Shown here: positions 8,023 to 41,208 of the stretch, piece by piece | Layout of the letters: each line of letters opens with the position of its first letter | Position numbering within the stretch: position 1 is the stretch's first letter | Assembly: GCA_963711505.1 (NCBI GenBank) | Contig: CAVQEJ010000003.1 | Span: forward strand, 781,564 to 845,563 | Direction: 5' to 3' | Length of the DNA stretch: 64,000 nucleotides | DNA from: an uncultured Acidobacteriota bacterium | GTDB lineage: Bacteria > Acidobacteriota > Vicinamibacteria > Vicinamibacterales > CAVVIG01 | The notes under the pieces: generated by a model | What the model was told of the DNA's origin: nothing | The model's database searches: none | Seen by the model: only the letters and a program-made list of their open reading frames with translations | Translations under genes and position numbers: made by a program

Positions 8023-9040
8023 GTGAGTCTCGACATGGCTGATGACTGGCAGGCGCTGACCGCCTTGACGGGCGGAGAACCGATGGTCGTCGAGCGGGTA
8101 CGACTGCTCAGGCGGGACATCGCCATCGAGGGGCGGTTCGACGTGCCGCCGCTGGCGCGGCTGTCGGCCGAAGACCAGATCTTCGTGGCGGCGTTCGTGC
8201 GGGCGCACGGCTCCATCAAGGAGATGGAAGCGTTGTTCGGCGTGAGCTACCCGACGGTGAAGAACCGGTTGAACCGGCTCGCCACGCAGCTCGACGTCGT
8301 CGACGTGTCGGTGCCGGTGCCACGCGTGGCGGCGCCGGTGTCGCCCGAGTCGAAGCGCGAGGTGCTCGACCGGCTCGAGCGCGGCGAGATCACGGTCGAG
8401 GAAGCATTGCGGAGCCTGAAGACGTCCGGCGCGGCCGGGGCTGCAGCCGGAGGAGGAGCGATCATGAGTGAGGAACGAGGTCGGATTCTGGAGATGCTGG
8501 CGCAGGGGAAGATCTCGGTGACCGAGGCCGAGCAACTGCTCAGTGCCGTGGGCGAGCCGGATGCGCCGCCCGCTGGCGACGGTGCGTCGGCGGCGGGCTC
8601 GTCGGATGCGGCCGGGGCGAGGGCACCCGGGGCCCTGAAGTACCTGCACGTGCACGTGCGGAAGAGCGCCAACGATACCTCGGGAGCCGGGTGGCCGGGC
8701 GGAGGGCAGGGACGCTGGTGGGCGCGTCACCAGGCGCGTGCCGCGCGGGACGGCACGGGGCAGGCCGCGGGGGCGACCGATCCGGACGGCGGCGTCCAGG
8801 TACAGCCGCGATGTCGACGTCCGCATTCCGCTGAGCCTGCTGCGTTCGGGGATGAAGCTCGCCGCGTTCATGCCCGGCCGGACGGGAGACGTCGTCTCGC
8901 GGAAGCTGCGGGAGAAAGGACTCGACATCGACGTCTCGAAGCTGGATCCGGCGCAGCTCGAGGAAGTGCTGACGAACCTCGGCGACCTGACGGTCGATCT
9001 GGACAACGGCCGCGGCCAGGTGCGGATTTACTGTGAGTGA
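8023..9040 (+). CDS. DUF2089-type HTH protein fused or adjacent to SHOCT-like motifs and a conserved C-terminal domain; at least one frameshift between ~8690 and ~8800
   Basis: RFDVPPLARLSAEDQIFVAAFVRAHGSIKEMEALFGVSYPTVKNRLNRL matches DUF2089, although the Cys zinc ribbon is absent. Two SHOCT-like motifs are present (GEITVEEALRSL; GKISVTEAEQLLSAV). The C-terminal part continues in the frame of ORF 8738..9040 (VDVRIPLSLLRSGMKLAAF...LTVDLDNGRGQVRIYCE). The start is ambiguous (GTG 8023 or ATG 8035). An internal ATG at 8467 could mean two genes. Confidence 0.6.
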
Positions 9041-25344: not shown

Positions 25345-26460
25345 TCAGGCGCCGGTCTTCTCGAACAGGTAGTGGGAGACGATCCACTCGTCGCCGTCGC
25401 GGTAGCCGAACAGCTCGGCGCAGGCGAGGAAGAAGAGCCGCCACCGGACCCACCACCGGCGCGCGTCCGGTGCGCCGTAGGTCCGCGCGAAGAGCGGCAG
25501 CAGCCGGTCCCGCGCGGCGTCCATGTTCGCGAGCCAGGCGTTCGCGGTTCTCTCGTAGTGGGTGCCGGTGAGTGTCCAGTGTCCGGTGGACGCGAGATCG
25601 CGGTCGAAGTACCCGAGGAGGTCGTCGCTCGGCATCAGGCCGCCGGTGAAGAACCAGCGCGCCATCCAGTCGCTGGCATCGCGGACCTCGAACGGATAGG
25701 CGAGCCGGCGGTGCGCGAAGACGTGGACGAACAGCCGGCCGTCGCGCTCGAGCCAGCCGGCGATGCGGGCCAGCAGCCGCTCGTAATTGCGCATGTGCTC
25801 GAACATCTCCACCGACACCACGCGGTCGAAGCGTCGATCGGTGGTGAAGTCGTTCATGTCGGCCGTCACGATCTCGAGGTTCGTCAGGCCGCGCGCCGCC
25901 GCGCGGGCCTCGATGAGGGCGCGCTGCGAGCGCGAGTTGGAGATGCTCACGAACCGGCTGGCGGGGAAGCGGGCGGCCATGTACAGCGAGAGCGATCCCC
26001 AGCCGCACCCGAGCTCGAGCACCCGCTGCCCGTCGGCCAGCCCGGCGCGCCGGCAGGTCAGATCGAGCATGGCCTCCTCGGCTTCGTCGAGTGTCGTGAC
26101 GCCCTCCGGCCAGTACGCGGCGCTGTACTTGAGGTGACGCCCGAGCACCGCCTCGAAGAAGGCCGCCGGCACCTCGTAGTGCTGGGCGTTCGCGGCGTCG
26201 GGATGGAGCGCGATGGGACTCCGCCGGAGCTCCTCGACGAAGGCCAGCTTTCGCGCGAGGCTGGCGGCGGCGCCGCCCCGCCCCTCCTCCCGGAGACGCT
26301 GGCGGAGCAGCCGGCGGATGCCGGCCCGCAGCAGGTGATCGGGCACGAGATCGCGCTCGACGATCGGTTCGTACCAGGCCCGTCGTTCCCCGGCGCCGGT
26401 CACGGCCGCGACCGACGCCCGATCGGCGGTGGCGATGTCGTTCACGACGGCCTCCCTCAC
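25345..26460 (-). CDS. cfa: Cyclopropane-fatty-acyl-phospholipid synthase family SAM-dependent methyltransferase
   Basis: [24 protein letters not shown]...[16 protein letters not shown]...[12 protein letters not shown] start at 26460 forms a GTGA overlap with the upstream DUF1295 stop. The longer track ORF (to 27192) is read-through. Confidence 0.85.
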
Positions 26461-27272
26461 GCGCGCCCTTCCGGCCGGCGCGGAAACCAGGGCACGAACG
26501 CACTCGTCGTCCGCTGGTAGTTGCGGTACTCGTCGCCGCGGCTTCGCAGCGCCTGGGCTTCGGTGGCCGGAATGCCGGTGACGCGCAGCAGGAAGTACAG
26601 CATGAGCGCCGGCGACAGCAGGCCGACGAGGCCGTGCGGCGAGCCGAGCGCGAACAGCGCGAAGCCCACCCAGACCGTCCATTCGAAGAAGTAGTTCGGG
26701 TGGCGCGACCAGCGCCAGAGCCCGACGCGGCAGGTCCGTCCCCGGTTGGCGGGGTCCGCCTTGAAGCGGTGCAGTTGGGTGTCGGCCGCGATCTCCCCGC
26801 TCATGCCGAGAGCCCAGACGAGCAGCCCCGCGCACTCGATCGCGTGCAGTCCCGGCGCGGCATTCAGGGCCGGCAGCAGGAACGGCGTGCTCAGGGCCAC
26901 GCAGAGCACGGCCTGGCATTCGAAGAAGAGAAGGAACTTCAGTGGTACGTGGGTGCGCCACGCGCGCCGCAGCTCCACGTAGCGACCCTCCTCGGGCTGC
27001 CCGATGACCCGCGTCACCAGCAGGTATCCCGACAGGCGAAGTCCCCAGACCCCGGCCATGACGGCGACGACGAGCGAGCGCAACGGATCGCCGTGGCCGC
27101 CCGCGGCGTAGACCCAGGCCAGGAGCACCAGTCCTCCGGCCCAGCCTGCATCGACGATGGCGGCGTTCCCGGTGCGGAGGTGGACGAGCCACAGCACGAA
27201 CATGAGCGCCGCGACCGCTCCGGTGCCGACAGCGATCAGAACCATCGCGTCGTGGATCATGTGCGGCCTCAC
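26457..27272 (-). CDS. DUF1295 family membrane protein (steroid 5-alpha-reductase / ICMT-like fold)
   Basis: Intact polytopic protein. [23 protein letters not shown] and [18 protein letters not shown] are DUF1295 hallmarks. Its start overlaps the regulator stop, indicating an operon. Confidence 0.8.
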
Positions 27273-28192
27273 GCGCGGTTCTCGAACCTCAGGAATTCCG
27301 CCTCGAGTGCCTCAATGGTCTCGATCGGCACCGCCCGGGAGCCGGGGAAGCCTGCGACCGTCCGGGCGGCCTGCGGTCCCCCTATCCAGAGCGTCACCCC
27401 GGCCGGCAGCTGACCAGCCAGCCGGGCGGCGTCCGCGATGGAGTCCGCGTTGTCGCTGGTCCGCGTCATCCCCAGCAGCACGGCGTCGGGACGGATCCGT
27501 TTCACCACGTGGAGGACTTCCGCGGCCGGCAGGTCGGCCCCCAGATAGGTGATGTCGATGCCGCGGCCGGTCGCCAGCAGCGCGGCCGCGAGGATCCCGA
27601 ATTCGTGTCGCTCACCGGCTGGCGTCGCCAGCAGGAGCCGGAAGGTGTGAGAACGGACCGGCACCAGCCGGAGCAGCGTGCCCAGCAGGCTGCGCATCAC
27701 CGCCGACAGCATGTGCTCGTGCGCGACATGGAGGCGGCCGTCGTGCCACGCATCTCCCACGTGGCGGAGCAGCGGCAGCACCACTTCGTGCACCAGGGTC
27801 GGCGCCGGCAGCAGGGCCGCCAGGCGCGACAGTTCCGATTCGACCTCCGAGAACTCGAACCGCTCAACCGCCTGCAGGAGTGCTTCGCGCACCGCCGGTG
27901 CGAGCGCCTCCGCCGTCGCCGGTTCGAGCGGAGCTGCGCCCTTCCGCTTCCGTCCCAGCAGTGCCTCGAGATCGGCATCCGCGCGGTCGGCGACCTGGCC
28001 GATGGCGAAGCCGGAGTCGACGGCTTCACGCAGCAGCCGAAGGCGGGTGACGTGCGCTTCGGTGTACAGGCGGCCGCGCGGGCCCCGCTCCGGTTCCACC
28101 GCGCCATAGCGGCGTTCCCAGGCTCGAAGGGTGTCGACCGACAGGCCCGCCAGTCGGGCGGCGGCGCGAATGGGGTAGCGGTTCGCTTCCAT
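27269..28192 (-). CDS. MerR-family regulator with C-terminal cobalamin-binding domain (CarH/LitR-type light-responsive repressor)
   Basis: N-terminal MerR HTH ([25 protein letters not shown]). W-x9-EH motif ([15 protein letters not shown]). B12 motif ExHxxG (GERHEFG) followed by ...WIGG. Intact. Confidence 0.8.
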
Positions 28193-28235
28193 CTTCTTTC
28201 CACAGAGTAGTGCGTTGAGCCGAGTATGTCAATCA

Positions 28236-28283
28236 TTTGTCTATGACAAAGGCTTGACGTAGTGCCAGCCGGGATGCTACAAG
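28236..28283 (+). promoter_or_regulatory. Divergent control region: perfect inverted repeat TTTGTC-TAT-GACAAA (28236-28250) abutting a TTGACG-N18-TACAAG promoter-like element (28254-28283)
   Basis: Read directly from the 131-bp gap between the CarH-like gene (start 28192, minus strand) and the desaturase gene (start 28324, plus strand). Locally AT-rich. Confidence 0.4.
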
Positions 28284-28323
28284 CAGAAGAAGGCTCCAGC
28301 TATCGCAGAACCGAGGGGAAGAC

Positions 28324-29164
28324 ATGGGCTCCGCCGCGCAGGTTGTTGTTCGTCGTCCGTGGCGTTACCAGTTGGGGGCGATTCTGCCGTTCGTCCTGAT
28401 CCATCTGGGGGCGCTGGCCGTCTTTTCGTGCCGTTCCGCTGGTCACTGGTCGGCTGGTTCGCCGCGAGCTATGCCGTGCGGGTGTTCGGCGTCACGGCTG
28501 GGCATCACCGGTATTTCAGTCACCGCTCGTACAGGCTGGGGCGCATCAGCCAGTTCGTGATGGCGTGTCTCGCCCAGACGGCGGCGCAGAAGGGGGTCCT
28601 GTGGTGGGCGGCGCATCACCGGGCGCACCACCGTCACGCGGATGCCCCGGGGGACATCCACTCACCGTGGCTGAAGACGCTCTGGTGGGCGCACGTCGGC
28701 TGGGTGCTGTCGAACGACACGACACGTACGACCCGCGACGGGTCGCCGACTTCGCGCGGTTTCCGGAGCTGCGCTGGCTCGATCGCCATCACTGGGTGCC
28801 GGCGGCGGTCTACGGGTCGGCCATCTGGCTGATTGGGGGCTGGGGCGCCTTCGTGTGGGGCTTCCTGCTCGCCACGGTAGCGGTCTATCACGCGACGTTC
28901 GCCGTGAACTCGGTCGCCCACGTGTTCGGCTGGCGCCGGTTCGAGACGCCCGACCAGAGCCGCAACAGTCTGCTGCTCGCGCTGGTGACCTTCGGCGAAG
29001 GGTGGCACAACAACCATCACTATTCGATGACGAGCTGCCGCCAGGGTCTCCGGTGGTGGGAGATCGACCTGACGTACTACGTGCTGCGGCTGCTGAACCT
29101 CGTGGGTATCGCGCGCGACCTGAAGGGGTTTCGCCGGCCGCAGGCGGGAAAGCGCGCGGCATGA
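28324..29164 (+). CDS. Membrane acyl-CoA/acyl-lipid desaturase (stearoyl-CoA delta-9 desaturase family); 2 frameshifts (~28425 in a T run, ~28720)
   Basis: The three His boxes are spread over three frames: HHRYFSH, HHRAHHRH, and GWHNNHHY. The sense chains through ORFs 28324.. -> 28359.. -> 28565..29164. Confidence 0.8.
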
Positions 29165-30411
29165 TGCGCGTGGCCGTCATCGGCGGCGGCATCTCCGGGC
29201 TCGCGGCGGCCTACTACCTGAGCCGGAAGCACCGCGTGTTCGTGCTCGAGGCGGAGTCGCGCCTCGGCGGTCACACGCACACGGTCCCGGTCGAGACCAG
29301 CCGGGGGCCGATGCCGATCGACACCGGCTTCATCGTCCACAACGAGCGGACGTACCCGCGTCTGGTCCAGCTGCTCCGGGAGCTGGGCGTGGCGACGCAG
29401 GCGTCGGACATGTCGTTCGCGGTGACCTGTCCCTCGACCGGCTTCGAGTACCTCGAGCCGGGGGCTCCGCGGATTCTTCGCGCAGCGGCGCAACCTGGTG
29501 CGCGGGCGGTCGTGGGAGCTGCTGCGCGAAATCGTCCGGTTCAACCGGACGGCGCCTTCGGTGCTGGCGCGCGAGGACGCCGACCGCCTGACGCTGGGCG
29601 ACTTCCTCGAGGCGCACCGGTTCGGCGGGGTCTTTCTCGACTACTACCTGCTGCCGATGGCGTCGGCGATCTGGTCGGCGACCTTCCCGGCGATCCGCGC
29701 GTTTCCCGCCCAGACGCTCGTGCGGTTCTTCGCCAATCACGGGATGCTCGGTCTGAACACCCATCCGCAGTGGCGAACGATCACCGGCGGCAGCGCGACG
29801 TACCTCGGGCCGCTGACGGCGCCCTTCCAGGAGCGGATCGTCACCGGGGCGCGTATCGAGACGGTGGCACGGGATGAAGCCGGGGTGACCGTGCGCTTCG
29901 TCGATCGGCCGGCGATGGCTTCGACCAGGTGGTGTTCGCCTGCAACGGCGATCGTGTGCTGAGGCTCCTCGAGGCACCGACCGACACCGAGCGCGAGGTG
30001 CTCGGCGCCTTCCGCACCAGCCGGAACGACGTCTGCCTGCACACCGACAGCCGCCTGCTGCCGCGGCGGCCCGCGGCGCGGGCCGCGTGGAACTACAACC
30101 TGGATCCATCGAACGGCCACGCAGCGACGGTCACCTACCACATGAACCGTCTGCAGGCACTGCGGCTGCCGGAGGACTACTGCGTGACGTTGAACGGAAC
30201 CGAGCGCGTCGATCCGGCGCGCGTGATCCGGTGCATGACCTACCACCACCCGCTGTTCGACCACGCGGCCATCCGGGCGCAGGGGCGCTGGGGTGACATC
30301 AGCGGCCGGCATCGGACGCACTTCGCCGGGGCGCACTGGTTCTACGGCTTCCACGAGGACGGACTGAACTCGGCGCGCCGCGTGGCGCGGGCGCTCGGGG
30401 TGCGGCTGTGA
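29161..30411 (+). CDS. FAD/NAD(P)-binding amine-oxidase / phytoene-desaturase-like oxidoreductase; 2 frameshifts (~29450, ~29915)
   Basis: ATGA overlap with the desaturase stop. Rossmann motif MRVAVIGGGISGLAAAYYL. Continues FFAQRRNLV...HPQWRTITGGSATY...VVFACNGD...GAHWFYGFHEDGLNSA across three frames. Confidence 0.8.
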
Positions 30412-31208
30412 CGATGGCCAGCGGCGTCTACCGGGGCACGCTGCGCCATCGCCGCTTCGAGCCGCGGGCGCATGCCTTCACGTACGAGCTCTTCATGGTG
30501 CTGCTCGACATCGATCGGATTCCCGACCTGATGCGCGTGTCGCCGCTCGCCGGCTGCAACCGGTTCGCCTGGGCGAGCTTCGACGACCGCGATCATCTCG
30601 GCGACCCGACGCAACCGCTCCGGGAGCGCCTGCGGGGCGACGCCGCCGCGCACGGCATCGTCCTGCCCGATGGCCCCATCTACCTGCTGACGCACCTGCG
30701 GTACCTCGGTTATGCGTTCAACCCCGTGTCGTTCTTCTATTGCGGAGACGGGCAGGGACACGTCGCGGCGATTCTGGCCGAGGTGAGCAATACCTTCGGC
30801 GACCGGCGTCACTACTGGCTGTGGGACGGGAACCGGCAGCCGTCCGGCGGCGGCCTGCGCTTCCGGGTGCCGAAGACGCTCCACGTGTCGCCGTTCATGG
30901 CGATGGGGCTCGATTACACCTTTGCCTTCACGCCGCCGGGCGATCGACTCGTCGCCCACATGAACACGCTGGACGGAGGACGGCCCTTCTTCGACGCGAC
31001 GCTGCGGCTGACGCGGGAGCCGTGGAGTGGCCGCGCCCTTCATCGGGCGCTCGCGCGCCACCCGTGGATGACGGCCAAGGTGATCGGGGCGATCCACTGG
31101 GAGGCCCTCAGGCTCTATCTGAAGAAGGTTCCGGTACATCACCGGCCGGCGCCGCCGCCGCCGGACCCGTCGGCATCCCGGCTGAAGGGAGACTCCGCAC
31201 ATGCGTGA
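30408..31208 (+). CDS. DUF1365 family protein (intact)
   Basis: YRGTLRHRRFEPRAHAFTYELFMVLLDIDRI...YLGYAFNPVSFFYC is typical of DUF1365. Overlaps both neighbouring genes, indicating an operon. Confidence 0.85.
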   Translation: MTMASGVYRGTLRHRRFEPRAHAFTYELFMVLLDIDRIPDLMRVSPLAGCNRFAWASFDDRDHLGDPTQPLRERLRGDAAAHGIVLPDGPIYLLTHLRYLGYAFNPVSFFYCGDGQGHVAAILAEVSNTFGDRRHYWLWDGNRQPSGGGLRFRVPKTLHVSPFMAMGLDYTFAFTPPGDRLVAHMNTLDGGRPFFDATLRLTREPWSGRALHRALARHPWMTAKVIGAIHWEALRLYLKKVPVHHRPAPPPPDPSASRLKGDSAHA

Positions 31209-32664
31209 CTGGACCACCCGTGCCGCGAAGCGGTATTTCCTGCAGGCGCTCGACGGATTGTCGGACGGCGGCCTCGAACTGGTCGGGCCCGACGGGATCC
31301 GGGCGTTCGGCGACCGGGATGCGCCGTTGCGCGCCGTGATCGAGGTGCACGACGAGCGGTTCTACCGGCGTGCGCTGATCGGTGGCGACACCGGCATGGG
31401 GGAATCGTGGATGGACGGGGACTGGAGCTCGCCGGATCTCATCTCGGCCGTGCGGCTGGCGCTGCGGAATGCCGCCCGGCTGGAGGCCGGTCACCGCTGG
31501 ACGTCGGCCGCCCGGCGCCTGCTGGACCTGGCGGCCCAGCGGCAGCGAGCCAATACGCCGGCCGGCAGCCGGAGGAACATCCACGCGCACTACGATCTGG
31601 GCAACGACTTCTTCTCGCTGTTCCTCGATCGTCGACTCGTCTACTCGTGCGCCTACTATGCGCATGCGGATGAGTCGCTCGAGGAGGCGCAACTCGGCAA
31701 GCTCGATCGCATCTGCCGGAAGCTCGACCTGCGGGCCGGCCAGCGCGTGCTGGAGATCGGCACCGGCTGGGGGGCGTTCGCGATCCACGCGGCCCGCGAG
31801 TACGGGTGCCACGTGACCACGACCACCATCAGCCGCGAGCAGTTCGACTACGTCAGGGCGCGGCTGGGCGAGATGCCGGACGTGGCCCGACGGGTCACGC
31901 TGCTGAACGCGGACTACCGCACCCTGCAGGGCGCGTTCGATCGACTCGTCAGCATCGAGATGTTCGAGGCCGTCGGCTTCGCCAACTACGATCGGTTCTT
32001 CGGCCTCTGCGATCGACTGCTGGGCTCCGAGGGGGCGATGCTGCTGCAGACGATCACGATGACCGACCAGCGCTTCCCGATCTACCGGCGCTCGGCCGAC
32101 TGGACGCAGAAGTACATCTTCCCCGGAGGCCAGCTCGCGTCGATGTCCGGCGTGCTGGCGTCGCTGCAGCGGGTGACGGGACTGAGGCTCCACCATGCCG
32201 AGGACATCGGCGCCCACTACGCGCGGACGCTGGAGATCTGGCGCGACCGGTTCCTGGGCGCCCTGCCGGCCGTGCGCGCCCGCGGGTTCGACGAGCGCTT
32301 CATCCGGATGTGGGACTTCTACCTGGCGTCCTGCGCGGCCGCGTTCCGGGAACGCTACATCGGCGACGTCCAGCTGCTGCTGGTGCGCAACGGGTGCCGC
32401 CGGCCATTGATGAACGAGCCGTGGCCGGGGGAGGGTGACGGAGTCGGACGGGACGCGGCGGAGGTCGCGCCCCGGGACGAACGCGACCGCATTCGGCGGC
32501 CGTCAGCTGACGCTCGACACGCGCAGGCGGCCGCCGGGCGGGCCGTGGATTTTTCGACGGGTCGCGCGCAACCGTCCTTTCCAGGGTTCGTGCCCGCCGT
32601 CTTTCAGACGAAATTCCGTCTGTTCAGAGGGTTTCGTGGCTGGAACTCCTTTTGCAACGTTTGA
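31201..32664 (+). CDS. Cyclopropane-fatty-acyl-phospholipid synthase-like SAM methyltransferase (second copy; C-terminal ~75 aa extension doubtful)
   Basis: IHAHYDLGNDFFSLFLD...VLEIGTGWGAFAIHAA...VSIEMFEAVG...IFPGGQLAS...WDFYLASCAAAF. The methyltransferase domain ends near 32420. The tail to 32664 is low-complexity and may be read-through. Confidence 0.8.
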   Translation: MRDWTTRAAKRYFLQALDGLSDGGLELVGPDGIRAFGDRDAPLRAVIEVHDERFYRRALIGGDTGMGESWMDGDWSSPDLISAVRLALRNAARLEAGHRWTSAARRLLDLAAQRQRANTPAGSRRNIHAHYDLGNDFFSLFLDRRLVYSCAYYAHADESLEEAQLGKLDRICRKLDLRAGQRVLEIGTGWGAFAIHAAREYGCHVTTTTISREQFDYVRARLGEMPDVARRVTLLNADYRTLQGAFDRLVSIEMFEAVGFANYDRFFGLCDRLLGSEGAMLLQTITMTDQRFPIYRRSADWTQKYIFPGGQLASMSGVLASLQRVTGLRLHHAEDIGAHYARTLEIWRDRFLGALPAVRARGFDERFIRMWDFYLASCAAAFRERYIGDVQLLLVRNGCRRPLMNEPWPGEGDGVGRDAAEVAPRDERDRIRRPSADARHAQAAAGRAVDFSTGRAQPSFPGFVPAVFQTKFRLFRGFRGWNSFCNV

Positions 32665-32682
32665 CGTACGAGGAGGTTCGTC

Positions 32683-32814
32683 ATGATCACGATCGGATGG
32701 ATTGGCTTCATGATCGTGCTGGGCGGCATGTTGCTCGGCCTGGGCGGGGCCGCACTCATTGCTGTCGTGCTGTACGACGTCAGCGTCCGGCACAAGTCGA
32801 AGACCGGCGCCTAG
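32683..32814 (+). CDS. Small hydrophobic protein (43 aa), not in the ORF track
   Basis: MITIGWIGFMIVLGGMLLGLGGAALIAVVLYDVSVRHKSKTGA. ATG is preceded by GAGGAGG at the optimal distance (gaggaggttcgtcATG). One or two TM helices followed by a basic tail. Confidence 0.5.
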   Translation: MITIGWIGFMIVLGGMLLGLGGAALIAVVLYDVSVRHKSKTGA

Positions 32815-33085
32815 GTGTCGCTCGTCTCACGGGCGGTCGGCGCGGCCTGCGGCCCTCGCGGGCACCGCCGAGGTGTGCGGGATCGGGGCCGCAGGCGATG
32901 GTGCGCGGCCACAGCTCCTCTCCCCATTCGCCGGCCCTGCCGTATTCCGGCCATCCCGCTGCCTCTCACGCGCTCCCGATACGCTATCCTTGTTGAAGTA
33001 ATGTTGTTGCGCCCGGACGCCGGCATCGACGCCCTCGACGACGTCGATCGCGCGGCGGGATGCCGGCACGGCCGGCCTTGGTTCC

Positions 33086-34027
33086 GTGTCTGACGAAAAC
33101 ATCTTCGTCGCCTTCGCGCTGCGCGCGGCCAACTCGCCCGGTGACGCCTGCCTGGTGCATCTGTGGGATGCCGGGCAGGGCACGGGCCGGCTCGTCGCCT
33201 GCCATCACCGGCGGGGCGAAGCGACGGCCTTGCTGATGTCGTGGGTGAGTGGCAGCGTGGGCGATCCCGCGAGGACGCCCTGGACCCGCGTGATGCGGAC
33301 CGGGCAGACGCTGCTCATCCCGTCGGCGGGACTGGCGGACGTGCGCGAGTTCGCCGTGGGTGAAGGCGACCTGTACCTGTCGCAGTGGGGCGTGCAGAGC
33401 ATCCTCATCCTGCCGCTGCGGCTGCAGGACGACGTGATCGGTGCCGTGACCCTGTTGCGGGATGCGGCGGGAGCGCCGTATACGCCGGTCGACTGGGAGA
33501 CGCTGCGGCACCTGACCGAGGGGCTGGCGCGGGCGCTGGCGCGGCGGGGCGCGGCGGGGGTGGCGGAGCTGAGTGCGAGCGCTCAGCCGCTGGTCGACGT
33601 CCACGCGGCGGCACGCGAGCGGCGGCCGGTACGGCGGGTGTCGGAGGGCGAATCGCCGATCATCGTGCTGGTCGAGGACGAGCATTCGGTGCGCGATCTC
33701 GTGCGCGAGATCCTGCAGCGGCAAGGCTACGTCGTGCTGGAAGCCGAGACGGCCGAGGACGCCCTGACCATCGTCGCCGGCCACACGGGCCGGCTCGATC
33801 TGCTGCTGACCGACGTCGTGATGCCCGGCATGAGCGGCGTGGCGCTCGCCGAGCGGCTGCGCCAGAGCCATCCCGGCCTGAGCGCGCTGTACATGTCGGG
33901 CTACGTCGACCAGTCGCTCACGAGCCGCAGCGATGCGGCGCGACCGACGCGCTTCCTGCAGAAGCCGTTCACGCTGGAGACCCTGCTGCGCGCCGTGCGC
34001 GACGCGCTCTCCAGCGACGCCTCCTGA
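33086..34027 (+). CDS. GAF-domain plus receiver-domain response regulator (no output domain)
   Basis: The N-terminal ~170 aa are GAF-like (SILILPLRLQDDVIGAVTLLR). C-terminal REC domain: IIVLVEDEHSVRDLV...LLLTDVVMPGMSG...SGYVD...FLQKPF. GTG start. Confidence 0.75.
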   Translation: MSDENIFVAFALRAANSPGDACLVHLWDAGQGTGRLVACHHRRGEATALLMSWVSGSVGDPARTPWTRVMRTGQTLLIPSAGLADVREFAVGEGDLYLSQWGVQSILILPLRLQDDVIGAVTLLRDAAGAPYTPVDWETLRHLTEGLARALARRGAAGVAELSASAQPLVDVHAAARERRPVRRVSEGESPIIVLVEDEHSVRDLVREILQRQGYVVLEAETAEDALTIVAGHTGRLDLLLTDVVMPGMSGVALAERLRQSHPGLSALYMSGYVDQSLTSRSDAARPTRFLQKPFTLETLLRAVRDALSSDAS

Positions 34028-34046
34028 AGACCGTTCTCCGCTTCTC

Positions 34047-35481
34047 TCAGATCAACCCCACGAAGATCGTCCGGATCGTCTCCCGCAGCGGCGCCGGGTA
34101 CGTGCCCAGCCAGATCGAGGAGCACGGTCAGCAGCGCCAGCACCACGCCGCTGCCGGCGTGCAGCGGCAGCGGGCTGGCGGTCGGCTCGCCGCGGGTGGC
34201 GTAGAGCGCGACGACGATCCGCAGGCAGTAGAAGAGGCCGATGGCGCTCGTCGCGACCAGGACCGCGACCAGCCCCCAGACACCGGTCGACGCGGCGGCG
34301 CCGACCACGAAGAACCGGCCGAGAAAGCCCGCCGTCAGCGGGATGCCGGCCAGTGACAGCAACATGGCGGTCATGACGCCCCCCAGGACCGGCCGCCGCC
34401 AGAACAGGCCGCGGTAGTCGTCGATCCGGTCGGCGTCGCGCGTTTCGTCGGAGAGGATTCCCACGACGGCGAACACCCCGAGCGTCGTGACGAAGTAGGC
34501 CGTCAGGCAGAAGGTGGCGGCCTCGGCTCCCGCCGCGCCGCCCGCCTGGACGGCGACGAGCAGGTAGCCGAAGTGGGCGATCGACGAATAGGCGAGGAGG
34601 CGCTTCACGTTGCGCTGACGCAGCGCCAGCAGGTTGCCGGCGATCATCGAGGCCGCGGCGATAAGCGTGAACGCCAGGTAGATCGACCCGCCGTCGACCG
34701 GCGACTCGCGGAAGTAGCGGAGCAGCAGGCCGAACAGCGCGCCTTTCGAGACCGTGTCCACGAAGGCGACGATGGGCGCGGGCGCGCTCTCGTAGACGTC
34801 GGGAGCCCACATGTGGAAGGGCACGACGGCCAGCGTGGAGGCGATGCCCGCAATCATCAGCGCCAGACCCGCCAGCAGCATCGGATCGTAGAAGCTGGCC
34901 CGGGTCGTGAAGAGCGCGCTCATCCGGCCGAATTCCATCGTCCCCAGCCGCGCGTAGATGAGCGCCATGCCGAACAGCAGCACGGCAGTGGAGCTGGCGG
35001 CGAGCACCAGGTACTTCAAGCCGGCTTCGATCGGTTGCGGACGGGTCGTCACGTAGCTGATGAGGCCGTACAGCGCGACGCTCAGCACCTCCATCCCGAG
35101 GAAGAACGAGACGAAGTGGCTGCTCAACACGATGGCGACGGCTCCGGTGGCCGCCGTCGGCAGCAGGATGTACAGCTCCTCCGGCCGCTCGCTCTGCCGT
35201 GCCAGGCAGCCGTGCGCCAGCACGACGACGATGAGGGTGGTCGCGATGAGCAGGCCGGCGTAGAACAGGCCGAAGCGGTCGACCACCAGCAGCGGCGTCA
35301 CCTGACGCGGGACCTCGGGCAGCGCCGCCGCGATCGAGGCGAGCGCCGCCACGAGCCCGGTGCCAGCCACGACAGCGGCGGCCGTGTGGTTCCGGCGCAC
35401 GGCGACCGTCAGCATGACGGCGATAGCCGTCAGGGCGACGAGCAGCAGCGGGAGCAGTGCGATCAGGCCGCGTTCGGTCAC
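34047..35481 (-). CDS. nuoN: NADH-quinone oxidoreductase subunit N (antiporter-like); frameshift near 34115 restores the normal C-terminus
   Basis: FFLGMEVLSVALYGLISY...EAGLKYLVLAASSTAVLLFGMALIY...PFHMWAPDVYE...AYSSIAHFGY. After the shift the C-terminus reads WLGTYPAPLRETIRTIFVGLI with TGA at 34047-34049. GTG start with GGAG upstream. Confidence 0.85.
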
Positions 35482-35630
35482 CTCGTCGGCTCCAGGGCAC
35501 CGGCCTGCACGCCGACGGGCCGCATCCGTGTCAGGGCGGGAGCGAAGGTGTCGCAGATCGGCCGGGGCGAGCGACCCGGCCGGACGAGGCCGGGGACGAG
35601 CGGAAGCGGGATGAGCCGGAGCGGAATCAT
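35478..35630 (-). pseudogene. 50-codon ORF occupying the position of nuoL/nuoM (possible relic)
   Basis: MIPLRLIPLPLVPGLVRPGR... Its ATG overlaps the nuoK stop (ATGA) and its TGA overlaps the nuoN GTG start (GTGA). So it keeps K->L-type and M->N-type translational coupling with about 3.5 kb of expected sequence absent. Confidence 0.3.
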
Positions 35631-35995
35631 AGGAACAGCACCAGGGCGACGAACAGGACGGTTCCGGCCGCCAGGCTCGCCGTGTACCAGCGGAGACGCG
35701 CCATCTCCGTGTCGCCCAGCCGCCGCCAGCCCCACTGCGTGAGGCGCCGCACCAGCGCGAGTCCGACCAGCGCCCCGGCTGCCGCCATCGTCAGGACGAA
35801 GATGAACATCACCTGGCCGTCGACCTGTCCCCAGCGGGCGCCCGCGGCGACGAAGGCGAGTCCGGTGGCGTTCAGCATCACCTCGATGGCGATCAGCATG
35901 AAGAGCACGTTGCGGCGCGCCAGCAGTCCCGCGAGGCCGATGACGAGGAGCGTGCCGGCCACGAGCAGCAGATCAGTCAGCGGAACGGCGGTCAT
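35627..35995 (-). CDS. nuoK: NADH-quinone oxidoreductase subunit K (with ~20-aa C-terminal hydrophobic extension)
   Basis: LLARRNVLFMLIAIEVMLNATGLAFVAAG...DGQVMFIFVLTMAAAGALVGLALV is canonical NuoK. Confidence 0.85.
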   Translation of the reverse strand: MTAVPLTDLLLVAGTLLVIGLAGLLARRNVLFMLIAIEVMLNATGLAFVAAGARWGQVDGQVMFIFVLTMAAAGALVGLALVRRLTQWGWRRLGDTEMARLRWYTASLAAGTVLFVALVLFL

Positions 35996-36506
35996 CGCCT
36001 CCCTCCGCGCGGGCCGTTCGCCGCCAGCCGATGTGATACGCCGTTACCAGCCCTCCCGGCAGCACCATGAACGCCAGCGCGATGCCGATCAGGTAGCGGC
36101 CCCACAGCGCGAGACCCACTTCGCGAGGTCCGGTGGCGGCCGAGCCGGCCATGGCGGTCAGGCCCTCGTGAGTGAGCAGGTAGCCGAACTCGGCGAGGAG
36201 CAGGGCCGCCAGTGCGGACGGGCCGAGCCAGGTGCCGGGCGTGAGCCAGGTCCGCTCCAGCTCGGCGGGCTCCCTGCCCGGGTTCATGGACGTGACCGCG
36301 AAGACGAAGAGGGCGATGATCGCGCCGGCGCCGACGACGACCTCGAGCGCCGCGGCGAGCTCGGCGCCGATCAGGAAGAAGACGACGGCGACGGCCAGCA
36401 GCGACACGGCGAGATACGCCAGGGCATGGATGATGCTGGTGCGCGTGACGGCCAGCAGCGTGGCCAGAATGGCGACGGCGCTGGAGACGTAGAGAGCGGA
36501 GGTCAT
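35973..36506 (-). CDS. nuoJ: NADH-quinone oxidoreductase subunit J
   Basis: Start at ATG 36506 (MTSALYVSSAVAILATLLAVTRTSIIHALAYLAVSLLAVAVVFFLIGAELAAALEVVVGAGAIIALFVFAV). The upstream part of the track ORF is read-through. Confidence 0.8.
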   Translation of the reverse strand: MTSALYVSSAVAILATLLAVTRTSIIHALAYLAVSLLAVAVVFFLIGAELAAALEVVVGAGAIIALFVFAVTSMNPGREPAELERTWLTPGTWLGPSALAALLLAEFGYLLTHEGLTAMAGSAATGPREVGLALWGRYLIGIALAFMVLPGGLVTAYHIGWRRTARAEGGDDRRSAD

Positions 36507-36974
36507 GGGAGCGCAATCTCTGTGACGGACGACGTGCGGCGTGTCCGCGGATCGGCCACTCGTGCCTCTCGCACGCCACCGGCTGCCGCCCCGTCCTCTA
36601 TCATCGCGCCTGTGCCGCGCCGCGCGTTGCACGGCGAAGCGGCAGGTTGGGACACGCGTCACGGCTGAGGCGGCTGCGCGATCACGAACCTGTGCCATGC
36701 CGTGTCCGCGGCCGGACCTCGTCGAACGCGGCACGCCGCGCGGCATATACTCTTAGAGAAGTGCACGCCCGCGCCTCGGGTCCTGGACGATGGTCCGGCT
36801 CCGGCGCTTCGGCGGTCGCCGCCGTGCGTCGCAATCGTGCTGCTGGCGTCCGCTCCACCCGCCGGCCCCGCGACCGGCATTCCGTGCCCGTCGCACCGCG
36901 CGTGCCTCCCGTTTCCGCAAGCTGATCCGTGCCGATGGCCGGTGTCGCCGTCGCGACGCGGCAAGGAGTGCAAG

Positions 36975-38404
36975 ATGGCAGAACGGCATGAGATGGGGAT
37001 GATCGGCCTCGGCGTCATGGGCCGGAATCTCGTCCTGAACATGGCCGATCACGGCTTCCCGGTGGTCGGCTTCGACAAGGACCCCGCCAAGGTGGAGGCG
37101 CTGCGCCGCGAGGCGGGCCAGCGGCCCGTGAAGGGCGCCAGCACGCTCGACGAGTTCCTCGGCCTGCTGCGGTCGCCGCGCGCCGTGATGATGCTCGTGC
37201 CGGCGGGCGGCCCGGTCGATGCGGTCGTCGACGAGCTGCGTCCCCACCTCGATCGGCAGGACGTCATCATCGACGGCGGCAACTCGTTCTACCGCGACAC
37301 CGATCGCCGCGCGAGCGCGCTGGCGAAGGACGGTCTGCACTTCGTCGGCGTCGGCGTCTCGGGCGGCGAGAAGGGGGCGCGCTTCGGTCCGAGCATCATG
37401 CCGGGCGGCGCGAAGGAGGCCTGGGATCGCCTGCGGCCGGTGCTGGAGGCGGTGTCGGCGAAGGTCGACGGCTCGCCGTGCGTGACGTACCTCGGGCCGG
37501 GCTCGGCCGGGCACTACGTGAAGATGGTGCACAACGGCATCGAGTACGGCCTGATGGAGCTCATCGCCGAGGCCTACGACCTGATGAAGCGGGGCCTGGG
37601 GTTCGACGACGACCGGCTGCACCGGGTCTTCGAGACGTGGAACGGCGGCGAGCTGAACGGCTACCTCATCGAGATCACGGCCGACATCTTCCTGCAGCCC
37701 GACGATCGCACCGGCAAGCGGCTGGTCGACATGATCCTGGACGAGGCGAAGCAGAAGGGGACGGGGAAGTGGACGTCCCAGGACGCGATGGATCTCCAGG
37801 TGCCGGTGCCGACGATCGATGCGGCCGTGGCCATGCGCGATCTGTCCGGGTACAAGAGCGAGCGGAGTGGCCGCCCAGCGTCTGTATCCCCCGACGAAGG
37901 CGCCGGCCGGGACTCGAGGCAGAGGCCTTCATCGAGCAGCTCGGCCATGCGCTCTACGCCGGCATGGTGATGACCTACGTGCAGGGGATGGCCCTGCTGC
38001 GCCGGGCGTCCGAGGCCTACCAGTACGGCCTGGCGCTCGACGAGGTGGCGCGCATCTGGCGCGGCGGCTGCATCATCCGCGCGGGGATTCTCGAGAAGAT
38101 TCGTACCGCCTATCACCGGACGCCCGACCTGCCGAACCTGCTGCAGGACGAGGCGTTCGCGTCGGACCTGCACGCCCGGCAGGGCGCGCTGCGCGGCGTC
38201 GTGCAGGCGGCGGCGCAGCTCGGCATTCCGGCGCCGGGACTGATGGCGTCGCTCGGCTACTTCGACGGGTACCGCTCGGGCCGTCTGCCGGCCAACCTCA
38301 CCCAGGCGCAGCGTGATTACTTCGGATCGCACACCTACGAACGGGTGGACGCGACGGGCGTGTTCCACACCGAGTGGCAGCAGACCGCACGGGAGGGTCG
38401 ATGA
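36975..38404 (+). CDS. gnd: 6-phosphogluconate dehydrogenase (decarboxylating); 2 frameshifts (~37866, ~37907)
   Basis: AAGGAG RBS. GMIGLGVMGRNLVLNMADHGF...GGNSFYRDT...GVSGGEKGARFGPSIMPGG...HYVKMVHNGIEYG. The C-terminal third lies in the frame of ORF 37478..38404, reached via a short stretch in a third frame. Confidence 0.9.
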
Positions 38405-39952
38405 CGAACGGAAACCAGGTGGGCCCGGCCACCCTCGTGATCTTCGGCGCGGCCGGGGACCTGACGTGGCGCAAGCTCGTGCCGGCGCTCTTCGATCTGT
38501 TCCTCGACAAGCACCTGCCGGAGCACTTCGCCGTGCTCAGTGTCGACAAGCAGCCGATGTCGCACGAGGACTACGTGCAGCACCTGCGCGAGGGCGTCCG
38601 GCAGTTCGGGCGGCGCAAGGTCAGCGACGAGGACAGCTGGAAGGCGTTCGCCGAACACCTGCTGGACTACGTGTCGGCCGACTTCGACGATGACAAGGCG
38701 TTCCAGGAGCTGGCGGCGCGGCTGAACGAGATCGACGGCCAGTGGGACACGAAGGCGACCCGCGTGTTCTACCTGGCCATCTCGCCGGGCCTGGTCGAGA
38801 TGGTGACGCGCCAGCTCGGGCAAGGCCGGGCTGGCCAGCGACACCGACCGCGCCCGGATCGTCGTCGAGAAGCCGTTCGGTCACGACCTGGCGTCGGCGA
38901 AGCAGCTAACGCGATGCTGACCGGCGTCTTCGAGGAACGGCAGATCTACCGGATCGATCACTACCTCGGCAAGGAGACCGTCCAGAACATCCTGGCGTTC
39001 CGGTTCGCGAACGCGCTGTTCGAGCCGATCTGGGACCGGCGCTACATCGATCACGTGCAGATCACCGTGGCCGAGCAGGTCGGCGTGGGGCACCGCGGCG
39101 GCTATTACGAGCACGCGGGCGCGCTGCGCGACATGGTGCAGAACCACCTGCTGCAGGTGCTCTGCCTGGTGGCGATGGAGCCGATCATCTCGTTCGACGC
39201 CGACGAGATCCGGACGAAGAAGGTGGACGTGCTGCGCGCCATCCGTCCGATTCGCGCCGGCCGACGTCCACCGGCTCGCCGTGCGCGGCCAGTACGCCGG
39301 CGGCTGGCTGCAGGGCGAGAAGGTCGAGGCGTACCGCAACGAGGACGGCTGCGATCCCGACTCGTCCACCGAGACCTTCGCCGCGCTGAAGCTGTTCGTC
39401 GACAACTGGCGGTGGCAGGACGTGCCGTTCTACCTGCGCACCGGCAAGCGGCTGCCGGCGAAGGTGTCGGAGGTGTTCATCCAGTTCCGGCCCGTGCCGC
39501 ACCAGGCGTTCCCGGCGTCGGCCGTGCAGGACTGGCAGCCGAACCTGATGATGATCCGGATTCAGCCCGACGAAGGGATCGTCATCCGCTTCCAGGCGAA
39601 GCATCCCGGGCCGCACATGCACCTCAGCCCGGTCGACATGCGCTTCGACTACCAGAAAGCGTTCAAGGCGGCCGCCCCGGAGGCGTACGAGACGCTGCTG
39701 CTCGACGTGATCCGGGGCGACGCCACGCTGTTCATGCGGGCCGACCAGGTCGAGGCGGCCTGGTCGGTCGTCATGCCCGTCCTCGACGTCTGGGCGGAGA
39801 CGACGCCGGCCGATTTCCCGAACTACCGCGCCGGCAACTGGGGGCCGGAAGCGGCGCAGGTGCTGATTGCGTCCGACGGGCGCGCCTGGCTCCTGCCGTC
39901 GCTCGCGGACGACGGGCAGGAGGAGCTGAGACGGCGGCGCAGCACATCCTGA
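38401..39952 (+). CDS. zwf: Glucose-6-phosphate 1-dehydrogenase; 3 frameshifts (~38823, ~38908, ~39255)
   Basis: ATGA overlap with gnd. LVIFGAAGDLTWRKLVPALF. The active-site region RIVVEKPFGHDLASAKQLN is readable only in a shifted frame. Then IYRIDHYLGKETVQNI and the C-terminal half in ORF 39281..39952. Confidence 0.9.
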
Positions 39953-41116
39953 CCATCAACGGCGGATCGTCGAGCCTGAAGTCGACCGTCTACGAGGCGG
40001 CAGGTGGCGACCTGCGTCCGCTGCAGACCGCGGCCGTGCAGCGCATCGGCTCCGGGACGGCCCGCGTCCGCGTGCGGGCCGCCGACGGGCGGACGCTCGA
40101 CGAGGGCGAGGCGCCGCTGCCCGACCTGCAGGCCGCGGTGCGTCACTGGCTCGACTGGCTGCGGGATCACGATGGCCCGCCGATCGACGGCGTCGGTCAC
40201 CGGATCGTGCACGGCGGCCCCGATGGTGACCGGCCGCGCCGAATTGGGCCGGAGCTCGTCGAGACGCTGCGCGCGCTCATCCCGCTCGATCCGGATCACC
40301 TGCCCGGCCAGCTCGATGCCGTGGCGGCGGTGGAGGCGGCGTACCCCGGCGTGCCGCAGGTCGCCTGCTTCGACACGACCTTCCACCGGACCATGCCGGG
40401 GGATGCCCGCCGCTACCCGTTGCCGCGGGCGCTCGAGGCGCGCGGGATCGTCCGGTACGGCTTTCACGGCCTGTCGTACGAATACATCATGAGTGAGATC
40501 CGCCGGATCGCACCCGGCGGCGGCCGGCGGCCGCATCGTCATCGCCCATCTGGGCGGCGGCGCGAGCATGGCCGCGATCGCGGGTGGCGTCAGCATCGAC
40601 ACGACGATGGGGCTGACGCCGGCCGGCGGCCTGATGATGGGCACCCGGTGCGGCGACCTCGATCCCGGCGTGCTCGTCCGGCTGCTGGAGATGGAACAGC
40701 TGACACCCGGAGGGCTGAACGATCTCGTGAACCATCGTGCCGGCCTGCTGGGCGTCTCGGAGACGAGCGCCGACATGCAGGAACTGCTGGGCCGGACGAG
40801 CGCGGACGTCCGAGCCGCGGAGGCGGTCTCGCTGTTCTGCTACGTGGCCCGGAAGTGGCTCGGCGCGCTGCTGGCCGTGCTCGACGGTGCCGACCTGGTG
40901 GTCTTTACCGGCGGAATCGGCGAGCACGCGCCGCGCGTCCGCGCGGCCATCTGCGAGCGGCTGACGTTTGCGGGTATCCGGATCGACGCGGCACGCAACG
41001 AGGCGAATGCGCCGGTGATCTCCGTCGAGGGGGCACCGGTGGGCGTGCGGGTGATCACCACGAACGAAGAGCTGATGATTGCGCGCCACACGGTGAAGAC
41101 ACTGCAGGCGGACTGA
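39931..41116 (+). CDS. ackA: Acetate kinase; frameshift near 40520; no canonical start codon found near the conserved N-terminus
   Basis: ILTINGGSSSLKSTVY...GHRIVHGG...ACFDTTFHRTMP...YGFHGLSYEYI, then frame of ORF 40493..41116 (RIVIAHLGGGASMAAI...GTRCGDLDPG...VFTGGIGEHA...TNEELMIARH). The 5' coordinate is approximate. Confidence 0.8.
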
Positions 41117-41173
41117 TGCCCGGGGGCCGCTTGCTGCAACGGAGCAACGGGCAATGGGTAACGGGTATTGCCT

Positions 41174-41193
41174 GACGTCGGACGTCCGACGTC
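41174..41193. terminator. Perfect 20-bp palindrome gacgtcggac/gtccgacgtc between ackA and rpiB
   Basis: Read directly. There is no loop and no T-tract, so a terminator function is doubtful. It could equally be a protein-binding site. Confidence 0.25.
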
Positions 41194-41208
41194 GGAGAGG
41201 ACCACCCT

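Follow-up and report, generated by a model that had tools for sequence, protein, structure and literature searches.

We analysed a 64-kb stretch of DNA from an uncultured Acidobacteriota bacterium (contig CAVQEJ010000003.1, positions 781,564 to 845,563; the window, below), in which three genes for membrane subunits of respiratory complex I, nuoJ, nuoK and nuoN, stand as an operon of their own. We consider it probable, from comparison with related loci, that they are a conserved and still-translated remnant of a second, E. coli-type complex I, made up of NuoJ, NuoK, transmembrane helix 16 (TM16) of NuoL and NuoN, which does not pump protons and is held under relaxed purifying selection. The evidence comes from relatives that carry the same gene trio or the intact operon, from the fusion of nuoK to the 3' end of nuoL (nuoK::L'), from a 50-codon open reading frame (ORF) that is a stub of nuoM, and from the pattern of change in the surviving genes.

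Complex I genes of the window and its relatives

A sequence-only reading of the window had described nuoJ, nuoK and nuoN as its only complex I genes, between a convergent gene for a GAF-REC response regulator and a divergent gnd, and Pfam, NCBIfam and tblastn searches bear this out. All three products score above the Pfam cut-offs (NuoJ, PF00499, 69.5 bits; NuoK, PF00420, 65.1 bits; NuoN, PF00361, 230.4 bits, E=3.5e-68), and in NCBIfam each is matched best by an E. coli-type equivalog (NF005162, NF004319 and NF004439). The nuoJ product reaches 155.4 bits against a cut-off of 157 for NF005162 (E. coli-type NuoJ), the nuoK product 101.9 bits against 101 for NF004319, and the nuoN product 436 against 531 for NF004439 and 353 bits against 332.6 for TIGR01770; the J and N scores against the E. 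coli-type models would fit a diverged member of these families. A hidden Markov model (HMM) built from seven intact NuoJ sequences matches the window nuoJ with E=8e-56. When all 13 E. coli (MG1655) Nuo proteins were searched against the 64 kb by tblastn, nothing was found beyond J, K and N, and the NuoG, NuoH, NuoI, NuoL and NuoM proteins of the closest intact relative (L083, see below) added only short NuoL and NuoM remnants. The 13-14 genes of a full NDH-1 operon, or the minimum of 11 that takes in NuoH, A, B, C, D, I, L and M, are not present in the window, which has only J, K and N, as do the contigs of the two relatives that share the trio, and no further PF00361, nuoH, nuoA or Mrp gene lies within the window.

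The sequence-only reading had also proposed a survey of related genomes for the same trio, and it was found in two further metagenome-assembled genomes (MAGs). One is a Vicinamibacterales MAG (contig L082), reached by a NuoK search that returned a 142-aa homologue, and the other an Acidobacteriota MAG (L084), reached, like L083, by a NuoN search. Both have the arrangement gnd, nuoJ, nuoK::L', nuoN and GAF-REC seen in the window, to which their proteins are 61-72% (NuoN), 53-68% (NuoJ) and 58-69% (NuoK) identical. Wider synteny with L084 takes in tal-pgi, rpiB, ackA, zwf and gnd on one side, and GAF-REC, CMAS, DUF1365, amine oxidase and desaturase genes on the other. The intact state is represented by L083, where nuoG-H-I-J-K-L-M-N is followed by the same GAF-REC gene; the window NuoN is 72% identical to that of L082 and 71% to that of L083. 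The intact arrangement is repeated in L088-L090 (nuoF/G to nuoN beside GAF-REC, on contigs of up to 175 kb), and the contigs of these intact relatives reach only as far as nuoF or nuoG. Among representative genomes, the nearest NuoN homologues (47-54% identity) all come from full operons wherever the contig extends upstream of nuoM, and the canonical NuoN of Vicinamibacterales MAGs is only 38-40% identical to the window protein.

The GAF-REC gene adjoins nuoN in L082, L083, L084, L087, L088, L089 and L090. Only five full-length orthologue clusters of this regulator were found among 5.8 billion protein clusters, all of them adjoining this clade's nuoN, and the gene marks the window locus as orthologous to the locus of the intact operon. 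At the other end, gnd marks the upstream deletion or rearrangement boundary, in the place of nuoA-I. The regulator is without an output domain and lies tail-to-tail with nuoN, 4-19 nt apart, in intact and reduced operons alike; it may be functionally linked to the nuo locus. A fourth, short contig (L087) carries a regulator with 70% identity and a NuoN C-terminus only ~37% identical (fragment 1491-1766), with K395R present, and nuoN may be decaying faster in that lineage. Another truncation of a related operon was observed in L085 (5553-7907) and L086 (ENA ERZ25039512 contig_87311; Logan ERR10755942), where NuoM is cut down to its C-terminal ~290 residues, NuoN is complete, 59% identical and with every relay residue intact, and fliW-csrA-flagellin genes follow. 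This suggests that erosion of this type of operon is recurrent.

Fusion of nuoK to the 3' end of nuoL

The ORF annotated as nuoK in the window encodes 122 aa as against the usual ~100, and the 22 surplus residues are at the C-terminus. NuoK family models (PF00420, NF004319) cover residues 4-86 only, and the nuoK DNA (window 35998-35742) matches L083 3676-3932 with 78.6% identity (E=3e-59). The residues beyond the NuoK core, TQWGWRRLGDTEMARLRWYTASLAAGTVLFVALVLFL, were identified as the C-terminus of NuoL by five tests. An HMM from seven intact NuoL sequences matches this tail at profile positions 590-629, the end of the profile (E=0.001 among 1156 six-frame segments), its only other match in the window being the paralogous core of NuoN. 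The best local alignment with NuoL of L083 covers residues 596-632 of 632 and scores 96 (shuffled sequences 31±4.6; 0 of 2000 as high), and tblastn places the same NuoL on the tail with E=3e-5. In the PDB the tail matches only NuoL chains of E. coli, over residues 586-611 of 613, a stretch that corresponds to TM16. The tail comprises the end of the NuoL lateral helix and TM16, and forms the fourth hydrophobic segment of the 122-aa protein.

The tails can be aligned across the window, L082 and L084, with AGTVLFVALVL identical in the window and L082, and the linkers between NuoK core and tail are set apart by in-frame indels, as large as 28 codons between the window and L082. The fusion is rare: a profile search of 1.84 billion representative proteins found the tail in one other protein only, P0250, which is that of L084, and two metagenome scans, one with the K::L' tail and one with the trio NuoJ alignment, gave no additional loci. 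Other long "NuoK" matches in the representative-protein search were rejected as frameshift or read-through artefacts.

The fusion makes topological sense: NuoK ends on the cytoplasmic side of the membrane, where TM16 also begins. In published structures, TMH16 of ND5/NuoL adjoins ND2/NuoN and ND4L/NuoK, and TMH4 of bacterial ND6/NuoJ binds where TMH16-ND5, TMH1-ND4L and TMH6-ND2 meet (PMC8762328). On these contacts, all that survives of NuoL is precisely the helix that forms part of the J/K/N bundle. Truncation of TM16 destabilises complex I (PMC11794437), and in Mrp the lateral helix is anchored to MrpD by TM16 (PMC7733839).

A stub of nuoM between nuoK and nuoN

The 50-codon ORF at 35478-35630 was correctly located by the sequence-only reading, as were its overlaps: its ATG overlaps the stop of the nuoK ORF (ATGA), and its TGA overlaps the nuoN GTG at 35481 (GTGA). 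By comparison with L083, it consists of NuoM codons 1 to ~17 fused in frame with the final ~33. Window and L083 match in a colinear series of DNA segments, running through nuoK, the nuoL 3' end with the nuoM start, the nuoM 3' end and nuoN. The second of these (35694-35599 = L083 5820-5915, E=1.7e-11) passes from the nuoL 3' end through ATGA into the nuoM start, and is followed by matches to the nuoM 3' end (35567-35530 = L083 7300-7337, E=0.008) and to the nuoN 5' end (35466-35336 = L083 7401-7531, E=2.2e-16). In L083 the L/M and M/N overlaps are both 4 nt; ATGA is the ancestral nuoL/nuoM overlap, not the K-to-L coupling it had been taken for, and GTGA is the ancestral nuoM/nuoN overlap.

Alignment of the 50-aa peptide to NuoL N-termini and NuoM C-termini had been suggested by the sequence-only reading as a check. 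The C-terminal part of the peptide GRSPRPICDTFAPALTRMRPV aligns with the NuoM C-terminus GLYPRPVIETFAPAMTHLEEV of L083 with a score of 63 (shuffles 21±4; 0 of 2000 as high), and tblastn with residues 462-490 of the same NuoM finds the stub with E=8e-4. The N-terminal part is closer to the N-terminus of NuoM (p~0.013) than to that of NuoL (p~0.4). The peptide has no match in Pfam or NCBIfam and was not detected by a NuoM HMM built from seven sequences, the link to NuoM having come only through the closer relative L083.

The gap between nuoK and nuoN is 146 bp in the window, where the stub fills it, and a 55-bp spacer in L082; there is none in L084, where the K::L' stop overlaps the nuoN start directly. 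The L082 spacer has a 91-nt deletion relative to the window, and only a Shine-Dalgarno-like CTGGAGCCG remains. The 50 residues of the stub include 10 prolines. Its sequence has not been conserved and is decaying, and features of a pseudogene were found in it alone. Because the nuoL end sits on nuoK and both ends of nuoM are in the stub, two separate in-frame deletions, one in nuoL and one in nuoM, took place.

Purifying selection and the loss of proton-relay residues

Between the window and L082, nuoN differs by 0.17, 0.13 and 0.35 at codon positions 1, 2 and 3. Ratios of non-synonymous to synonymous change (dN/dS, NG86) for J, K and N among the three trio loci are 0.28-0.62, compared with 0.06 for rpiB, 0.13-0.22 for gnd and 0.27-0.37 for GAF-REC, and synonymous sites are near saturation (proportion of synonymous differences, pS, 0.38-0.51). 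The ~10 indels of J, K::L' and N all have lengths divisible by three, and the 2.1 kb of trio genes contain no stop codon in L082 or L084. In neutral simulations, with the amount of change set to half the third-position difference, nuoN was left without a stop codon in 2-3% of runs for each lineage, the figures for nuoJ and nuoK being 26% and 30%, and all three genes stayed open in ~0.2% per lineage. J, K::L' and N are unlike pseudogenes in that position 3 changes 2-3 times more than the others, indels are in frame and the L082 and L084 copies are free of stops. Because of the third-position bias, the in-frame indels and the simulated stop rates, these genes are under purifying selection, in relaxed form, while the stub between them decays.

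The proteins have nevertheless lost residues that intact complexes keep. Of the sites invariant in six intact operons, 14-22% are changed in the N of the trio, 20-39% in J and 17-28% in K, as against 6%, 2% and 0% in intact L083; 78-86% of the invariant NuoN sites are still kept. Particular residues of the proton path, each invariant in seven intact operons, are replaced in some or all of the trio loci (residues in the order window, L082, L084; NuoN relay sites in E. coli numbering). In NuoN, the TM5 glutamate E133 is E, E and A, the TM7 lysine K217 is T, R and H, and the TM12 lysine K395 is R, R and I; the TM8 lysine K247 is kept throughout. In NuoK, E36 is E, A and V and E72 is G, E and A, and in NuoJ, Y59 is G, Y and G. 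Neither the antiporter-like set of NuoN (E133, K217, K247, K395) nor the E-channel set (NuoK E36 and E72, NuoJ Y59) is retained in full in the window, L082 or L084. It had been suggested that J-K-N might be a genuine minimal proton-channel module. A conserved set of genes under selection is real, but with its proton-transfer residues replaced it no longer bears the hallmarks of a proton pump, and a working channel module finds no support.

The nuoN frame and single-base indels

The sequence-only reading gave the operon as 34047-36506. The conserved NuoN C-terminus (IWLGTYPAPLRETIRTIFVGLI*) does end at 34047, but in another frame: comparison with L082, L083 and L084 locates one surplus base near 34116, CTCCTC[G]ATCTGG, that shifts the frame, and the ORF as written from 35481 runs on to 33901. 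Once this base is taken out, NuoN is 477 aa long and colinear with the NuoN of the relatives. Isolated single-base indels are also found against L084 in gnd (frameshifted once), zwf, ackA, the amine oxidase gene and the fatty-acid desaturase gene (28300-41200), recurring in coding sequence about once every 1-2 kb. Counting was restricted to isolated indels within well-conserved parts, the global DNA alignment being noisy where it is divergent, and two N-gene gaps common to the trio, in a variable loop, were not taken as evidence of common descent. The indels across this region look like long-read consensus error rather than mass pseudogenisation, and the extra base in nuoN, which fits the assembly-wide rate, is more likely an assembly error than a mutation. 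Frame-based readings of the window should allow for single-base consensus errors.

Layout of the locus and its surroundings

The features of the locus are collected in Table 1. The nuoJ/nuoK overlap is 23 nt, the same as in the intact relative.

Table 1. Positions in the window of the trio genes, the nuoL and nuoM remnants and the adjoining features.
Feature	Position	Strand	Description	Basis
nuoJ	36506 to 35973	minus	177 aa; first gene of the putative remnant operon	PF00499, E=3e-19
nuoK::L' fusion ORF	35995 to 35627	minus	122 aa	
nuoK core	35741..35995	minus	codons 1-85; three TM helices	PF00420, E=5e-18
nuoL remnant	35627..35740	minus	last ~37 codons and nuoL stop	NuoL HMM, L083 alignment, tblastn, PDB match
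nuoM stub (50-codon ORF)	35630 to 35478	minus	begins MIPLRLIPLPLVPGLV	
nuoN	34047..35481	minus	GTG start; 477 aa once one surplus base near 34116 is removed	
GAF-REC response-regulator gene	33086..34027	plus	convergent with nuoN, 19-nt gap	Pfam GAF and Response_reg
gnd (6-phosphogluconate dehydrogenase)	36972..38404	plus	divergent from nuoJ	Pfam NAD_binding_2 and 6PGD
AT-rich motif TAAGAGTATAT	36745..36755	minus	in gnd-nuoJ spacer	kept in three trio loci

The gnd-nuoJ spacers of the three trio loci are GC-rich and divergent, with lengths of 465, 308 and 162 bp, and tblastn with the L083 proteins found no nuoG, nuoH or nuoI remnant in the spacer of the window. Within them, the AT-rich motif is common to all three trio loci (L082 ~925-935, L084 ~9005-9015). 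A second conserved block, GCCGCCTCAGCCGTG, is seen at window 36660-36674, and its reading on the gnd strand contains TATACT. The two blocks could be a candidate promoter or operator shared by the divergent genes. A scan for consensus sigma-70 promoters and terminators over 33.0-37.5 kb gave nothing, and an Rfam search of the same interval gave no match.

A lipid-modification cluster is also conserved beside the locus, at window 25360-32700 and L084 12850-19987, with 66-87% identity. It contains genes for two CMAS-type methyltransferases, a DUF1295 protein, a B12-binding MerR regulator, a fatty-acid desaturase, an amine oxidase and a DUF1365 protein.

Comparison with known systems

J, K and N are clear homologues of the subunits of E. 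coli-type (clade E, 13-subunit) complex I. The orthologous locus in relatives is a full nuoF/G-N operon, from which the trio has inherited its 23-nt J/K overlap and its 4-nt L/M and M/N overlaps. Clade E enzymes are marked by a fused NuoCD subunit (PMC4453560); the window has no nuoC or nuoD. The trio differs from the E. coli type in being without nuoA-I and without the bodies of nuoL and nuoM, in the NuoL TM16 borne by its NuoK, and in the replacement of relay Lys, Glu and Tyr residues.

The surviving subunits also recall the proximal pump module, or the ND2-module assembly intermediate (ND2/ND3/ND4L/ND6), in having N, K and J together with the TM16 contact site. However, the trio locus has no redox arm, NuoH or NuoA, its relay residues are lost, and its TM16 is tethered covalently to NuoK instead of being delivered by the lateral helix. 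Engineered or mutant enzymes without NuoL, or without ND4 and ND5, include E. coli ΔnuoL and the Yarrowia nb8m deletion subcomplex; unlike the trio, such forms keep NuoH/NuoA (ND1/ND3) and the redox arm, and still pump.

The Mrp, Mbh and Mbx modules have a comparable core of J-like, K-like and antiporter-like subunits (the MrpA C-terminal domain resembling NuoJ, MrpC NuoK and MrpD NuoN). However, the trio sequences are Nuo and are recently derived from a complex I operon; MrpB, E, F and G are absent, and NuoN is the only antiporter-like subunit. Membership of Mrp was rejected, the Mrp models scoring 17-118 bits against cut-offs of 91-718.

Among partial nuo clusters (the 11-subunit form without NuoEFG and the Nuo-Partial category; PMC4453560, PMC12361115), the likeness is that of an incomplete, single-strand nuo cluster. 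Known functional partial clusters, however, drop the NADH module and keep the whole membrane arm and the quinone (Q) module, whereas the trio consists of three membrane subunits only. The fusions recorded in complex I surveys are CD and BCD, and a K-L fusion is not mentioned in PMC12361115. These surveys (PMC4453560, PMC12361115) give partial clusters and CD/BCD fusions, and nothing like the trio.

Origin of the trio and alternative explanations

We suggest that these loci descend from a second complex I operon, of clade E-like type, carried by a small lineage of Vicinamibacterales (Acidobacteriota). Loss of nuoA-I brought gnd against nuoJ, an in-frame deletion of ~1.8 kb in nuoL fused nuoK to the last ~37 nuoL codons, encoding TM16, and an in-frame deletion of ~1.3 kb in nuoM left the 50-codon stub, now present in the window genome only. 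NuoJ, NuoK, NuoN and NuoL-TM16 pack together in complex I, and the survivors would form one contiguous helix bundle, much like a proximal membrane module from which NuoH and NuoA are missing. None of the three deletion boundaries cuts into this bundle, and we infer from this, without taking it as proof, that only deletions sparing J, K, TM16 and N were tolerated. The cell would still make all three proteins, nuoN being translationally coupled either via the stub or by direct overlap, and they would form a small membrane sub-complex that does not pump protons, kept for a structural or other non-canonical role and slowly degenerating. A more specific and more tentative possibility is that this mini membrane arm (NuoJ, NuoK-tethered TM16 and NuoN) has been kept by selection for a new, non-redox role, as a passive or regulated ion path, as a scaffold, or as a co-sensor with the GAF-REC regulator.

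The main rival explanation is that the trio is a purely non-functional relic, J, K::L' and N being pseudogenes in slow neutral decay whose frames remain open through recent losses and high G+C. We think this rather unlikely, but several observations weigh on its side or against our own account. The dN/dS values of the trio are 2-5 times those of neighbouring housekeeping genes. The replacements of the lost invariant proton-relay residues differ from lineage to lineage, a pattern closer to drift than to a new common function, and 14-39% of invariant sites are changed. The nuoM stub is plainly eroding, and the highly divergent NuoN fragment of L087 suggests ongoing decay of NuoN in some lineages. 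Only three full examples and one fragment are available, all from uncultured organisms; high G+C lets long frames stay open by chance more easily; the window nuoN carries a frameshift, though similar indels elsewhere point to assembly error; and clade E operons are frequently gained and lost (PMC4453560). Against neutral decay, the fusion and the gnd junction are common to three lineages whose synonymous sites are nearly saturated, codon positions 1 and 2 change 2-3 times less than position 3, every one of the ~10 indels is in frame, 78-86% of invariant NuoN sites are retained, and 2.1 kb remain stop-free in both L082 and L084 where neutrality would give ~0.2% per lineage.

That the trio supplies spare or split subunits, working with nuo genes elsewhere (a canonical complex I, or relocated nuoA-I, L and M) as a functional complex or isoform, appears improbable. 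Genomes with two isozymes are known (PMC4453560), and a canonical NuoN at 38-40% identity in Vicinamibacterales MAGs makes a second complex I in the same cell plausible. However, nuoL and nuoM were deleted in place with stubs left, not moved, residues required in any working complex I are replaced, and no other PF00361, nuoH or nuoA gene is present in the 64 kb. The sequence-only reading was right to see a relic, but not in the anatomy it gave; its proposal of a single in-frame deletion, with the nuoL 5' end joined to the nuoM 3' end, is contradicted and rejected. The ORF N-terminus MIPLRLIPLPLV does resemble antiporter-like-subunit N-termini in a generic way, but it matches NuoM and not NuoL, the DNA match to L083 links the end of nuoL with the start of nuoM through ATGA without a break, and the nuoL C-terminus sits on nuoK. 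An assembly collapse between paralogous L, M and N sequences, also proposed earlier, we reject. The window assembly is indeed prone to single-base indels, but the same gene order, neighbours and K::L' fusion recur in two independent MAG assemblies from other samples with NuoN 61-72% identical, and the junctions are in frame and connect segments that are not paralogous, the 3' ends of nuoK and nuoL.

Implications

The annotation "NADH-quinone oxidoreductase subunit J/K/N" is almost certainly no sign of a working complex I at this locus. If the remnant is functional, a J/K/N bundle with one NuoL helix can fold and persist without the quinone module, NuoH and NuoA, NuoM or the body of NuoL, which bears on the modularity of complex I and of the Mrp membrane arm. 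It would be a natural counterpart to engineered truncations of NuoL and TM16, in which evolution has retained that helix through fusion to NuoK. The related loci also record the stepwise dismantling of a horizontally acquired second complex I, from the intact operon, through the trio with a nuoM stub and the trio with a 55-bp spacer, to the trio with direct overlap.

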